DNA from: an uncultured Smithella sp.
GTDB lineage: Bacteria > Desulfobacterota > Syntrophia > Syntrophales > Smithellaceae
DNA length: 64,000 nt
NCBI GenBank assembly: GCA_964581635.1
Contig: CAZOPH010000002.1
Location: 7,032 to 71,031 of the forward strand
Reading direction: 5' to 3'
The first letter of the stretch is position 1. Each line of letters starts with the position of its first letter. The position numbers and the translations under genes are program-made. Below, piece after piece: positions 32,512 through 35,865 of this stretch. The notes beneath the pieces were generated by a model that was not told the origin of the DNA, ran no database searches, and was given only the letters and a program-made list of their open reading frames with translations.

Positions 32512-35500
32512 ATGGAGCTAAAGATGGAAAACGCTCGGAAGCAATATCTTTTAAGACAACAAGAAGAAGATTCATCTTATGTAGGCCAAAGTTCACATAC
32601 TGATAAGCTAAAAGTCTTAAAAATACAGCGCACCTGTGTTCATGACGGCCCCGGAATCCGCACAACGATTTTCTTTCAGGGGTGCGGATTGAGGTGCTTG
32701 TGGTGCCAGAATCCGGAAGCGCTGTCATTCCATCCCGACCTAGCGCCAGACAGGGATTATTCGATTTCCGACATAATCGAACTTGTTTTGAGAGACAAGG
32801 ATTATTACTACAAAACAAACGGCGGGGTGACCCTGAGCGGCGGCGATCCTTTATTCCAGGACACGGATAGCCTGATGCCTTTACTGGAATCGTTAACGAA
32901 AGAGAACATACATGTGGCCGTTGAAACTTCCCTTCACGCACCTTGGGGAAATGTAGAGAAATTGGCGCCTTACGTAGATCTGTTTCTTGTTGACTTGAAG
33001 ATTGTCGGTGATGACGGCCTCCATAAGAAGTACACCAAGCAGGACAGCAAACTTATCCAAGATAATATAGAGAAACTGATTGCTTTAAACGCCAAGGTTA
33101 AATTCCGCATGGTGATGGTGCCGGGTTACAACGATAGAGAAAGCAATATTAAAGCGACTGCGGATTTCTTGAAGTCTGTCCATCACAACTCCATCGAGCT
33201 GCTGAAATACAACAACATGTATGAAGAGCAAGCCAGGCGTCTCGGATTGGTAACACAATCGTTGAATATCACAAATGACCAAAGTCTTACCTCTGTAAAA
33301 AAAGCCGTTGAATTATTTGAATATCTTGTCATCAAAGCCGAGTGTTATGATCTGGATGCTTCCAGACACAAAGCCGTTTTTCCCAAGCGCGTTTATGACA
33401 TACAAAACGCCATCAGAGAAAGTGGCAGGGGTCTCTGTTTTGAAGTATCCAGACTGAAGACAGATTACTACAAGAAGAATGGTTTTGAAAAACCGAACCC
33501 GATTCACAGAGCGGAACGTCTGTCTTATGTTCTGGCCAACAAAAGTGTTGTCATCTATCCTCAGGAACTGCTTGTCGGCAATTTCACCGCCAAGAGATGC
33601 GCTGGTCAAATATGGGAAGAGCACTATGGCGCTCTCTTTGCTTCGATTCTCCATCAGATCCATCGCCAGAAACCGGTTCCATTCCAGTGTTCCTGGGAGG
33701 ACAGACTCAACTTCTTTTATAGAACACTTCCTTTCTGGATGAGACACTGCCTTTTAATGAAGGTAAATAACTCCATTTCCAAGTTTATATCAGCTATTGC
33801 ACGCTCTTCCGAGAACGTTGCGGGATTCAATAATAACATGGCCGCAATCGCTCATTTTAACGTCAACTTCGATCGCATGCTTCAGTTGGGAACCACAGGA
33901 ATCATAAAAGAGATTGAAATCGCGCGAAAAGGAAAGCCTGGCATTAGCCAGGCCTTCTACGAGGGAGCAATCATCGGCCTCAAGGCTTTGGAAACGTTTG
34001 CCGCACGTTACGCCGACAGCCTGAAAAAGCTGAGCCGGGAAGAATCGGATACGGGACGCCGCCAAGAATTGGAAGAAATGGCTGCGATCTGCAGGCATGT
34101 TCCCAAATACCCTGCCCGCACGTTCCATGAAGCGCTCCAGAGTATGATGTTTTTGCAGATCGCGATTTGTACAGAATCCTATGAAAATGCGATATCCCAT
34201 GGACGCCTCGATCAGGTATTATATCCCTACTATAAAAAGGATAAAGAGGCCGGTGTCATTGATTACGATAAGGCGAAAGAACTGCTGGCCTTATATATTC
34301 TCAAAATGGACGAAGCCATCCTGGTCAATGATGGCGATACCTATCTGAGAATCGGAAGACTCTTCGAAACGATGTCCACCGATCAGGCTGTAACAGCCGG
34401 AGGTCTTGGCAGAGACGGTAGAGATGCCACCAATGATGTTACTTATATGCTTCTCGATATTTGCGAACTGCAACCTTACGCCTGCAATATGGCAGCCAGA
34501 ATTCATAAAGACAGCCCTCCCGAATATCTGGATAGGCTTGCGGAGATATATATAAATGGCGCACCCATGCCTGCTTTGTATAATGATGAAATTTATCTGA
34601 AAACTTTGGCAAAGCATTACCCTGCCACCCCCGTAGAGGATGCTAGGAATTACGCGATAATCGGGTGCGTTGAACCAAATGTTTCGGATGATCATTTTGG
34701 TAATACCGACTGCGCCAATGTGAACGTTGCCTTGCCTTTCTTACAGGCCCTGAAAGGCGAAGAAGACGATCTGTGGAACGTCGGCCTGGTCGATCAACTG
34801 GAAAAAATGACCACGAAGTTCTTCGAATACAATTGCAGAAGAAACAATAAATATTCTCACTATGTTCTGGCAAAATATATGAACACCCGGAAACGTTTCA
34901 AGCGGAAGAGAGCCTCCACACCTAAGCCACCTGCGAACATGGATGAGTTGCTTCAACGCTTTCAGGTACGTTTGAATCATCTGATCAACGCCATCTTGGT
35001 CGATCACCAGAATATTGAAAAGGTGATTCGTGAAAACTTTACAACGCCCCTTTCATCAGCACTCTTTAAGGGTTGTATTGAAAGCGGAAAAGACCTGTGC
35101 GAAGGCGGCGCAACGATAAACAGCAGCGGCATTCAGGCGATTGGGATTACGGATGTTGCGGATTCGTTATTGGCCATTAACGAGGTGGTATATAAACAGA
35201 AGCGGTATTCAATTCATGACATCATCAACGCCATAGACAACAACTTCGAGGGGGAAGATTATCAGCAGATCAGATTGTCATTACTCGACGTTCCGAAATT
35301 TGGTCATGACGGTTCGTGTGAAGCAATCGCTTGGGTAAACAAAACATTGCAGATTTATGTGAACGCATTGAACTCGGTCGAGAACTGTCCTAGAGGCGGC
35401 ATATATACTGCTGGATATTACGCTTTGAATGTAAATGATGTTTACGGAAAGAAAACGCCTGCGTTGCCTTCAGGGAGATTGAGCGGCGTTTCTCTTGCTA

Positions 35501-35865
35501 ATAGTATTACGCCTCATTATGGAATGCAGACGACCGATTTATTGTCATCACTGAATGCTGTCGCCGATGTTGATTTTGCAACCTATGCTTCCAATGGCAC
35601 CACCGTTACGTTCACGGTTGACTCGGCGCTGTTCCAAGGTCCGGATGGAGTCAGAAACCTCTCAGGGATAATTAGGACATACTTTGACAAAGGCGGCATG
35701 CAGTTTCAGCCAAACGTAATCAACAGACAGATATTACTGGACGCATACGACCATCCGGGAAAATACCCGAATCTTCTGATTCGTGTTGCCGGTTACTGCT
35801 CATACTTCAATGAACTTTCGGATGATTTGAAAAAGATCATCATAAACAGAACCTGTTATTGTTAG
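32512..35865 (+). CDS. Fusion protein: glycyl-radical-enzyme activating enzyme (radical SAM, PflA type) at the N-terminus and a PFL2/glycerol-dehydratase-class glycyl radical enzyme at the C-terminus
   Basis: Single uninterrupted 1117-aa ORF. Activase part: [27 protein letters not shown] (CX3CX2C = C58/C62/C65, nt 32683-32706) and [11 protein letters not shown]. GRE part: thiyl loop IIGCVEPN (C719/E721, nt 34666-34674), [18 protein letters not shown], and the C-terminal glycyl radical motif [11 protein letters not shown] (G1094, nt 35791-35793). Confidence 0.92.
   Translation: [1117 protein letters not shown]

Follow-up and report, generated by a model that had tools for sequence, protein, structure and literature searches.

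A natural protein family in which a radical-SAM activase and a glycyl radical enzyme share one polypeptide

Can a glycyl radical enzyme (GRE), which is sensitive to oxygen, and its radical-SAM activating enzyme (AE) exist naturally as one polypeptide, and if so, what would this mean for the way in which the radical is made? The question is raised by an open reading frame in a 64-kb stretch of DNA from an uncultured Smithella sp. (hereafter the window), which a sequence-only reading had described as an AE joined to the N-terminus of a GRE. We asked whether this fusion is real, how widely it occurs, whether both halves are likely to work, and what it may do.

The single uninterrupted ORF and the covalent, AE-first fusion are both genuine (Table 1). 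A Pfam check of the window ORF found both domain sets, Fer4_12 (residues 45-133) and Radical_SAM (53-210) followed by PFL-like (293-791 and a second stretch) and Gly_radical (996-1100), all with E ≤ 4e-11. The residues singled out at the outset (C58/C62/C65, an 11-residue stretch at 104-114, C719/E721 and G1094) were all correctly placed, and RVAGY does lie near the C-terminus, with 23 residues following G1094 and not 24. Translation probably begins at the ATG at 32524 (M5), giving 1113 aa, because a GGAG lies 6 nt 5' of this codon and both public gene calls are of that length; residues 1-30 have low model confidence and are without conservation.

An error of assembly, frameshift or gene calling that joined two neighbouring genes is conceivable in principle, as the ancestral genes share 4 nt and one sequencing indel could merge them in silico. 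The same protein, 100% identical, was nevertheless recovered on two separately assembled contigs (NCBI GCA_022703275.1 and ENA ERZ27282986). Among 33 family loci in species-representative genomes each of the 28 complete genes is one ORF (1092-1134 aa), while five loci are truncated by a contig end, and the same architecture is found in hundreds of clusters from NCBI, JGI, ENA and Logan. The junction also speaks against such an error. By alignment, the linker is the counterpart of the AE C-terminal tail and the GRE N-terminal tail of an unfused relative, it is shorter than those two tails joined, and F290 and R293 at the linker are invariant in the family alignment. We therefore give this explanation a negligible chance. 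No Met that could serve as an internal translation start at the junction occurs from residue 276 to ~409 of the window protein, and an AF2 model of the two-domain protein has a pLDDT of 89.7 and a pTM of 0.89.

Table 1. Features of the AE-GRE reading frame and of the genes downstream; residue numbers count from the first ATG
Feature	Position in window	Strand	Basis or remark
Whole AE-GRE single-chain ORF	32512..35865 (incl. stop codon)	+	1117 aa from first ATG, unbroken
Radical-SAM glycyl-radical activating-enzyme domain, residues ~35-275	32614..33336	+	Pfam, TIGR02494, PflA alignment
DGPGIR loop, residues 45-50, glycine-loop-binding motif of GRE activases	32644..32661	+	aligns with PflA DGPGIR
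CX3CX2C (C58, C62, C65), ligands of SAM-binding [4Fe-4S] cluster	32683..32706	+	invariant, 211 sequences
Short loop, residues 66-84, where related activases have the ferredoxin-like insert	32707..32763	+	alignment, split TIGR02494 match
GGDP, residues 110-113, 'GGE' SAM-binding motif	32839..32850	+	alignment to PflA
Inter-domain linker, 17 residues (276-292)	33337..33387	+	alignment with unfused relative; pLDDT 79-89
GRE domain, PFL2/dehydratase-class fold, residues 293-1117	33388..35862	+	Pfam PFL-like and Gly_radical, Foldseek
Cys loop G718-C719-V720-E721-P722, thiyl-radical Cys and general-base Glu	34663..34677	+	aligns with GDH C433/E435
Family-specific helical insert, residues ~751-815	34762..34956	+	split PDB matches, model
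Glycyl radical motif R1091-V-A-G1094-Y1095	35782..35796	+	within Pfam Gly_radical 996-1100
START-domain protein	36004-36708	+	downstream, same strand
FGGY sugar kinase	36780-38369	+	downstream, same strand
Glycerol-3-phosphate-dehydrogenase-like flavoprotein	38379-39998	+	downstream, same strand

The fusion is also not a one-off. More than 220 protein clusters (at the 90% identity level), 54-100% identical, all carry the AE-GRE architecture, as do all full-length matches listed in two database searches, and more distant AE-first fusions exist besides. Members come from two domains of life, the bacteria among them being uncultured anaerobes: Smithella and other Syntrophales, Desulfobacterales, Spirochaetes, Firmicutes, Asgard archaea and Hadarchaeota. 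They abound in Asgard archaea and in syntrophic Deltaproteobacteria (Smithella), the habitats being anoxic sediments, peat and digesters. Bacterial and archaeal copies share 55-66% identity, and the family tree (neighbour-joining, unbootstrapped) is discordant with taxonomy. Two groups of candidates were set aside. Apparently split members (the AE-only P0298 and P0327, and P0226) have frameshift-like low-complexity tails and are treated here as damaged fragments. Supposed fusions in cultured organisms at loci L034-L080 (27-30% identity; Faecalicoccus, Diplocloster, Floccifex, Breznakiella and others) are ordinary GREs, since their table matches spanned residues ~30-1114 by joining separate hits and an ORF/BLAST check returned GREs of ~800 aa.

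Public records label these proteins only as 'pyruvate formate lyase family protein' or 'radical SAM protein'. A full-text literature search found no paper on the family and no characterised AE-GRE fusion like the window protein, so that within this search the initial statement that there is no characterised example holds; a paper on Hermodarchaeota 'Ass/Bss' does not mention fusions. A fusion of a GRE with its activase had been reported earlier at the sequence level. This is the eukaryotic class III RNR NrdDG, a GRE and its radical-SAM activase in one ORF, which was reported from a few fungi and oomycetes only and is probably linked to horizontal transfer, according to Lundin et al. 2010 (PMC3019208). 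It resembles the present family in placing both functions in a single ORF, and differs in having the opposite order, GRE then AE, and in belonging to another GRE class.

Is the N-terminal half a working activase? It aligns end to end and gap-free with the E. coli PflA structure (PDB 3c8f; also 3cb8), both lacking an auxiliary-cluster insert, and the two have in common DGPGIR, CX3CX2C, GGE-type, DxK and R-x-V-V-PG motifs. In PflA the motifs so aligned are known as its SAM- and peptide-binding elements. Counted over 211 family sequences, DGPG (with D45, G46 and G48), CX3CX2C, GG[E/D]P, E138, D161/K163 and R199 are invariant, so the SAM-binding elements of this domain are present. Apart from its covalent attachment to a GRE, the domain differs from PflA in scoring better on the PFL2-type AE family TIGR02494 (PFLE_PFLC), where its 206 bits exceed the cutoff of 174, in two stretches flanking the absent insert region; on the PflA equivalog TIGR02493 it scores 141 bits, below the cutoff of 232. 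A compact, PflA-like AE devoid of the ferredoxin-like insert, as proposed from the first inspection, was thus confirmed: the insert, ~50 Cys-rich residues with two Cys clusters, is present at this place in the relatives P0223 and P0224 and in the AE at locus L089. Model pLDDT is mostly 80-95 in this domain and only 56 for residues 71-80. Loss of the insert bears on the route of electron delivery, and we counted it against the explanation favoured below.

It may be argued that the radical-SAM domain is degenerate or repurposed, for example as a structural or regulatory element, and that the GRE is activated by a separately encoded enzyme. The window protein has Asn at residue 234, where 197 of the 211 members have His, and GGD for GGE; a related genome (L002) has a separate AE a few kilobases downstream, beside a second, ordinary GRE. 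The His at 234 aligns with that of the PflA 'LLPYH' motif, presumably a SAM contact. Both substitutions are conservative and occur in other members (Glu stands at position 112 in 116 of them, Asp in 95), and we counted them too against our preferred explanation. The invariance of the three cluster cysteines and the other motifs just named, the score above the TIGR02494 cutoff, and the lack of any second AE in the 64-kb window all argue against degeneration. Mean identity across the family is 0.67 for the AE and 0.70 for the GRE, indicating similar constraint on both halves. As the catalytic motifs of the AE and the radical Cys, Glu and Gly residues of the GRE are invariant in the 211 sequences, both halves are predicted to be functional, and a degenerate AE seems very improbable.

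The second half is a GRE of the PFL2/dehydratase class with a Cys-x-Glu loop, as first assigned. It carries both superfamily domains, Gly_radical (E=1.6e-21) and PFL-like (the ten-stranded barrel with finger-loop Cys, E=4.5e-130), and Foldseek returned a TM(target) of 0.94 to Archaeoglobus fulgidus PFL2 (PDB 2f3o, 30% identity), the best structural match, and of 0.91-0.92 to the glycerol dehydratase of the Clostridium butyricum DhaB1/DhaB2 system (1r8w) and the 1,2-propanediol dehydratase (PDH) of Roseburia (5i2g, 9rco), which match best in sequence and in fold, with 28-30% identity. C719, E721 and G1094 are invariant in the 211 sequences, as are the whole GCVEP loop and R1091, A1093 and Y1095 of the radical motif, in which residue 1092 is V or I. 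The domain also has a helical insert of ~65 residues that is missing from solved GREs, A. fulgidus PFL2 included, and at which every PDB match breaks in two. It includes a basic stretch of 14 residues, is modelled as helices 759-774, 780-800 and 810-842 (pLDDT 87-92), and is less conserved than the remaining GRE (mean identity 0.47 vs 0.70).

What the enzyme acts on cannot be read from the sequence, as had been stated at the outset, and A. fulgidus PFL2, an unfused enzyme, likewise has no assigned physiological substrate. Pyruvate formate lyase activity finds no counterpart in the motifs, since the PflB Cys-Cys pair is replaced by G718-C719 and TIGR01255, with its cutoff at 994 bits, gives 125. 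The best-scoring GRE model is the PFL2/glycerol dehydratase subfamily TIGR01774, at 488.5 bits and below its cutoff of 678.2; no NCBIfam equivalog cutoff was reached among HpfG, HpsG, PflD, HypD, CutC, IAD, HPAD and PflB (best HpfG, 362 vs 1000, the others falling far short of theirs). Mapping onto the B12-independent glycerol dehydratase (GDH) suggests an active site that is only partly diol-dehydratase-like. Besides the Cys and Glu and the RVxGY motif, four of seven mapped non-catalytic positions are conserved, the counterparts of Asn156 and of the substrate-hydroxyl ligands His164, Asp447 and Tyr640, the last three being H448, D733 and Y970 (invariant, with H448 in 210/211 and one gap). In contrast to GDH and PDH, the window protein has ENAIS for GHSIS (N559 for His281, A560 for Ser282) and D624 for Tyr339, all invariant in the family, as well as Leu for Ser642. 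The original placement among 1,2-eliminases is accordingly upheld in the Cys-x-Glu and the four positions and weakened by ENAIS and the Asp, and an eliminase assignment stays weak; together with the TIGR01774 score, these substitutions were likewise counted against the favoured explanation. GDH and PDH further differ from the window protein in that enzyme and activase are separate proteins, in lacking the helical insert, and in an AE that has the ferredoxin-like insert.

On the initial account, the gene of the activase usually follows that of the GRE. This rule fails in this clade: P0231 (locus L089), the nearest unfused relative, has a 300-aa AE gene directly upstream of the GRE with an ATGA stop/start overlap. 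At the level of gene order this shows AE-then-GRE as the ancestral arrangement, which explains why the AE comes first in the fusion. More distant AE-first fusions (P0223, P0224, P0225 and P0233; 35-39% identity) come from outside the family, from the eukaryote Anaeramoeba, Waddliaceae and metagenomic lineages. Judged by the GRE part, the closest sequences outside the family are P0224 (Anaeramoeba flamelloides KAJ3428281.1), P0223 from a metagenome and P0225, a fragment from Waddliaceae. They have the domain order of the family and are rare, on 1-3 contigs each, in contrast to the abundant window family. The AE domains of P0223 and P0224 retain the ferredoxin-like insert with its two Cys clusters, a region absent from the P0225 fragment. 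Probably an AE gene and a GRE gene whose stop and start codons overlapped became fused and the fusion fixed, after which the family would have lost the AE insert and gained the GRE helical insert; a single fusion and several would both be compatible with the unbootstrapped tree. Relative to the first account, sequence comparison adds that fusion is a family trait, that AE-first fusions occur further afield, and that an upstream AE with an ATGA overlap accounts for the order.

Taken jointly, we consider it probable that this is a functional natural fusion which makes its own radical, likely carries out a 1,2-elimination or dehydration, arose from an AE-then-GRE pair and behaves as a one-gene module. 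In this scheme C58, C62 and C65 would hold one [4Fe-4S] cluster in a domain that binds SAM; one-electron reduction would cleave SAM to a 5'-deoxyadenosyl radical, which would take hydrogen from G1094 of its own polypeptide or of the partner subunit in a homodimer. The glycyl radical would then pass to C719 as a thiyl radical and start turnover with E721 as general base. By analogy with B12-independent diol dehydratases, a hydroxylated substrate would most likely undergo 1,2-elimination or dehydration. What the comparisons establish is the architecture and its conservation, the intact catalytic motifs, the fold, the ancestral gene order and the spread across two domains of life; that the protein activates itself in cis or within a dimer, which type of reaction follows and what adaptive reason the fusion has are things we infer.

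A different possibility is that the fusion is mechanistically neutral, a frozen accident in which the stop codon was lost at the ATGA overlap of a translationally coupled AE-GRE operon, with the tethered AE acting like a free catalytic activase on whichever GRE molecule it encounters and the fusion kept since one gene transfers and expresses more easily. The overlap in the nearest unfused relative is in line with this, several lineages have fusions, one of them a eukaryote, and the cross-domain spread fits transfer of a one-gene module; for NrdDG, fusing transferred operon genes has been argued to be a route to expression in eukaryotes (PMC3019208). Yet more than 220 clusters contain no convincing split member, P0298 and P0327 having frameshift-like junk ends, the fusion is accompanied by two derived changes (AE insert loss and GRE insert gain), and the pTM of 0.89 is compatible with, though no demonstration of, fixed docking of the domains. 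Retention of the fusion, the derived changes and the pTM therefore favour co-adaptation, and we hold neutrality to be unlikely, if deserving of some weight. A bolder form of co-adaptation is offered tentatively, with doubts of similar size: self-activation would be obligate, the insert-less AE, docked permanently, would together with the helical insert make up an interface devoted to activation, and each molecule or dimer would install, perhaps re-install, its own radical 1:1. An undescribed GRE reaction would then take place at an active site with the invariant Asn559/Ala560/Asp624, and the module would have passed between several phyla of bacteria, Asgard archaea and Hadarchaeota.

To our knowledge a full GRE-activase complex has yet to be solved structurally, and for this reason the presentation of the buried glycine loop to the activase has long been an open question. 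A natural, conserved single chain with a confident model and a short, structured linker offers a vehicle for cryo-EM or crystallography of the activation state, and could help show how glycyl radical enzymes get switched on. It also lets the paradigm of a catalytic activase be tested against 1:1 self-activation, and a gene with a built-in activase would ease heterologous expression of GRE chemistry. Because public labels say only PFL family or radical SAM, metabolic reconstructions may wrongly score the family as PFL.

The surroundings of the gene offer few leads to a substrate. The three downstream genes of Table 1 are possibly co-transcribed with the AE-GRE ORF, no terminator-like site being found on the + strand from 35866 to 36003. 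No Rfam riboswitch or RNA element was matched in the 454-nt upstream region or the whole window, and promoter and terminator scans of the 5' leader gave background levels. Of 105 neighbouring ORFs surveyed, the only kind to turn up repeatedly is regulators (GntR/FCD eight times, TetR six times); no metabolic partner recurs, dehydratase pathway genes included. A lipid or glycerol substrate was therefore rejected and survives as a weak lead. It had been prompted by the START, FGGY and G3P-dehydrogenase-like genes of the window, by FAD-oxidase and AMP-binding/acyltransferase genes at spirochaete loci, by a GpsA-like gene at a single Asgard locus, and also by an SCP2-GRE relative. By NCBIfam the window kinase is xylulokinase-like, the spirochaete flavoprotein is GlcD-like and not an alkyl-DHAP synthase, and the GpsA-like gene has weak matches, to the N-terminal domain only and far under cutoff. 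Acyl-CoA sensing, suggested by FadR_C matches on upstream GntR regulators, was also discarded, as FadR_C and FCD, two models that we assign to one clan and regard as overlapping, match the same region. With both functions in one gene that usually adjoins only a GntR/FCD or TetR regulator, the family is likely a self-sufficient, horizontally transferable module. The START/FGGY/G3P-dehydrogenase-like arrangement belongs to the window genome and is not a family trait; at the locus of a 92%-identical ortholog the START gene is retained, and other window genes from farther downstream have homologues there in fragments.

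The sequence-only reading described a radical-SAM activase (AE) and a glycyl radical enzyme (GRE) encoded as one polypeptide, and every motif it quoted is present in the translation at the residue numbers stated. The fusion is less singular than that reading suggests, the same architecture running throughout a large family. The identical protein was found on two independently assembled contigs (NCBI GCA_022703275.1, 107.5 kb, and ENA ERZ27282986), and scanning a single genome for each species gave 33 loci with relatives at 55-92% identity. By ORF and BLAST check all 28 complete family genes are one ORF of 1092-1134 aa spanning both domains, the remaining five of the 33 loci being truncated by a contig end. 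The matches listed from a collection of 5.8 billion proteins comprised 221 distinct clusters, and every full-length member among the clusters listed carries Radical_SAM, Fer4_12, PFL-like and Gly_radical; a few AE-only matches terminate in frameshift-like junk. Judged from these sequences the fused ORF is not an artefact, and we hold with high confidence that it is a real, functional AE-GRE fusion. Family size and phylogenetic reach give the fusion greater biological relevance.

Features of the fused protein, its active site mapped onto the B12-independent glycerol dehydratase of C. butyricum (GDH), other AE-first fusions and nearby genes (residues counted from the first ATG; nucleotides are window positions unless a locus is named)
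Feature	Position	Description	Remark
Fused AE-GRE gene	32512-35865 (+)	single ORF, 1117 aa	ORF listing
Fer4_12	residues 45-133		Pfam
Radical_SAM	residues 53-210		Pfam
PFL-like	residues 293-791 and a second stretch		Pfam
Gly_radical	residues 996-1100		Pfam
GDH C433	C719		conserved
GDH E435	E721		conserved
GDH H164	H448		conserved
GDH D447	D733		conserved
GDH Y640	Y970		conserved
GDH N156	N440		conserved
GDH H281	N559		changed
GDH S282	A560		changed
GDH Y339	D624		changed
GDH S642	L972		changed
C734	34711-34713	strand after Cys loop, adjoining conserved D733	invariant
Cys 1115	35854-35856	two residues before C-terminus	nearly invariant
P0223		1095 aa, AE-first fusion	three contigs, read from two different sequencing runs
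P0224		1136 aa, AE-first fusion	Anaeramoeba flamelloides (anaerobic eukaryote), KAJ3428281.1
P0225		AE-first fusion fragment	Waddliaceae
P0233, P0341, P0361		further AE-first fusion fragments	
Signalling protein	26382-29405 (-)	1007 aa; GGDEF, several PAS and HD(-GYP-like) domains	
BtrH_N + DUF4872 protein	31047-32057 (-)		divergent from fused gene
DUF255 thioredoxin-domain protein	39995-42067 (+)	690 aa	start overlaps stop of G3P-dehydrogenase-like gene
HGD-D family protein	L087:6482-7771 (Promethearchaeota)	429 aa	directly upstream of fused gene, same strand
TetR gene, second GRE, 309-aa gene	L002:13715-18359	second, ordinary GRE of 991 aa	in this order after the fused gene, in one related genome

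No ribosome-binding site precedes the first ATG, and GGAG lies 6 nt 5' of the ATG at 32524; since public gene calls also give a protein of 1113 aa, the true start is probably M5. Residues 1-30 are not conserved and are modelled with low confidence. The NCBIfam model for a glycyl-radical-enzyme activase subfamily (TIGR02494) scored 206 bits against a cutoff of 174, its match split in two stretches, and that for the PFL2/glycerol-dehydratase subfamily (TIGR01774) scored 488 bits, under its cutoff of 678; none of the NCBIfam equivalogs comes close for the GRE part.

Residue conservation was read from a family alignment of 211 sequences. Invariant in the AE are D45, G46 and G48 of the DGPGIR loop, C58, C62, W64 and C65, G110, G111 and P113 (the intervening position 112 being Glu in 116 and Asp in 95), and E138, D161, K163 and R199. 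These motifs align one-to-one with DGPGIR, CX3CX2C, GGE, LDTN, DLK and IRYVVVPG of E. coli PflA, the pyruvate formate-lyase activase, in which they are the SAM- and peptide-binding elements (structure 3CB8). A caveat is position 234, the 'PYH' position of PflA, which is His in 197 of the 211 but Asn in the window protein and in nine further sequences. In the GRE, G718, C719, V720 and E721 are invariant, as are R1091, A1093, G1094 and Y1095. Family members average 0.67 identity to the window protein over the AE and 0.70-0.73 over the GRE parts, so the two halves are under comparable constraint. C553 and C651 are likewise invariant in the family, and we know of no GRE role for these two cysteines, for C734 or for that at residue 1115.

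AlphaFold2, run on the whole 1117-residue chain with a 116-sequence family alignment, gave a pLDDT of 89.7 and a pTM of 0.89, and so high a pTM for a two-domain chain would be compatible with a defined packing of AE against GRE. Foldseek placed the GRE part closest to A. fulgidus PFL2 (TM 0.94), then to propanediol dehydratases and glycerol dehydratase (TM 0.91-0.92), with CutC, HypD, YbiW/PflD, IslA and others ranked lower. Neither sequence nor Foldseek searches returned a PDB entry with both AE and GRE domains. All PDB sequence matches are interrupted at about residues 750-808, a family-specific insert of confidently modelled helices whose identity (0.47) is below that of the core; our guess is that it helps to dock the AE.

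Mapping onto GDH, whose active-site residues have roles known from the literature, separated conserved from changed positions. C719, E721, D733 and Y970, and likewise the changed N559, A560, D624 and L972, are invariant across the 211 sequences; N440 is kept in 203 and H448 in 210, the remaining sequence being gapped there. Because of this pattern the GRE looks like a hydroxyl-eliminating scaffold with a re-tooled pocket holding a fixed Asp, and 1,2-elimination can be offered as a tentative assignment of the reaction, somewhat short of an even chance. In the mechanism we propose, the tethered AE would generate the radical at G1094, either in the same chain or in the other subunit of a dimer, and C719 and E721 would then catalyse an elimination-type reaction whose substrate is a small hydroxylated molecule, which the adjacent regulator might sense. 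It is likely that the AE acts on GREs of its own family, inside one molecule or one dimer. Because it would need no partner activase, the single fused gene could spread by horizontal transfer.

HMMER, run exhaustively against 1.84 billion representatives, reduced the family to a single representative at 50% identity, and the best matches after it (35-39% identity) were other AE-first fusions. The AEs of P0223, P0224 and P0233 retain a ferredoxin-like insert with two Cys clusters, and in the alignment the window family is without about 50 residues exactly at that site. Among unfused relatives the nearest, P0230-P0232 (36-37% identity), are interleaved with the fusions in an unbootstrapped NJ tree. 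For P0231 a 300-aa AE gene, with insert, lies directly upstream of the GRE gene, the two sharing an ATGA stop/start overlap, so AE-first order and translational coupling are ancestral in the clade; from such an overlap a one-nucleotide event suffices to fuse the two genes. There may have been a single fusion followed by later fissions, or several separate fusions.

The GRE-plus-AE system in general is well known, and fusion of a GRE to its activase has one precedent at sequence level, the eukaryotic class III RNR NrdDG, which differs from the window family in its opposite domain order and its GRE class (PMC3019208). Full-text literature searches turned up no account of a naturally occurring AE-first fusion of PFL2 type, and public annotation of the family is generic, one JGI record reading 'pyruvate-formate lyase/pyruvate-formate lyase-activating enzyme'. 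The window family differs in having GRE and AE in one chain, an AE devoid of the insert that its relatives carry, an insert in the GRE and a distinct active-site signature.

The A. flamelloides fusion (P0224 / P0371), its AE bearing the Fer4 insert, lies on multi-Mb nuclear contigs and is annotated 'formate acetyltransferase 3-related'; it gives the prokaryotic fusions a counterpart among eukaryotes. The second GRE of locus L002 has an N-terminal extension of ~190 residues without a Pfam match, and is followed by a 309-aa gene that clusters with the GRE/AE group, presumably its separate activase; the representative search has further GREs with a similarly long N-terminus (P0250, P0255, P0267, P0284, P0367). 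P0242, a 943-aa GRE 32% identical to the query and known from seven sequences (one from an Odinarchaeota MAG), has an N-terminal SCP2 sterol/lipid-carrier domain, an unusual fusion that hints at a hydrophobic substrate. In P0278 and P0321 (1022 and 1060 aa) PFL-like and Gly_radical stop near residue 803, and the 220-260 C-terminal residues beyond Gly_radical, without a Pfam match, may represent an appended domain of a different kind.

The records of the searches name as bacterial hosts Smithella, Smithellaceae, Syntrophaceae, Desulfomonilia, Desulfobacterales, 'Myxococcales', CSSED10-310, Leptospirales, Spirochaetae, Oscillospiraceae, Ruminococcaceae, Eubacteriales and Dethiobacteria, and as archaeal hosts Asgard lineages (Promethearchaeota/Lokiarchaeota, Sigynarchaeota, Hodarchaeota) and Hadarchaeota. 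All sources are MAGs or metagenomic contigs, and no cultured host was seen among the family records. Bacterial and archaeal copies share 55-66% identity and are interleaved in the unbootstrapped NJ tree, which indicates horizontal transfer of the fused gene between domains of life. The window itself, with EF-G, RecC, RecB and ABC genes around, has the look of normal chromosomal DNA from a Smithella-like bacterium, and the closest other genomes bear the labels 'uncultured delta proteobacterium' and Smithella.

The gene neighbourhood gives no pointer to the reaction. Of the 105 ORFs lying up to two genes away from the fused gene at 33 loci, the only recurring ones encode regulators, of the GntR/FCD type in 8 cases (upstream, same strand) and of the TetR type in 6; six additional loci with precomputed Pfam labels had neighbourhoods that were all different. 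Downstream in the window lie genes for a START-domain protein, an FGGY kinase (xylulokinase-like) and a G3P-dehydrogenase-like flavoprotein, and the 92%-identical ortholog locus keeps the START gene together with homologues, in fragments, of other genes from farther downstream in the window. A lipid/glycerol theme for the substrate was considered from this context and downgraded. The DUF255 gene would be the last of a possible operon downstream of the fused gene. The BtrH_N + DUF4872 gene also lies beside the fused gene in the ortholog locus; its top-scoring NCBIfam model is that of the BtrH-related acyltransferase DarH, at 128 bits against a cutoff of 300. The protein directly upstream in the Promethearchaeota locus belongs to the 2-hydroxyacyl-CoA dehydratase / double-cubane reductase family. 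At several other loci, too, PAS, GGDEF and histidine-kinase proteins are encoded close to the fused gene, perhaps by chance.
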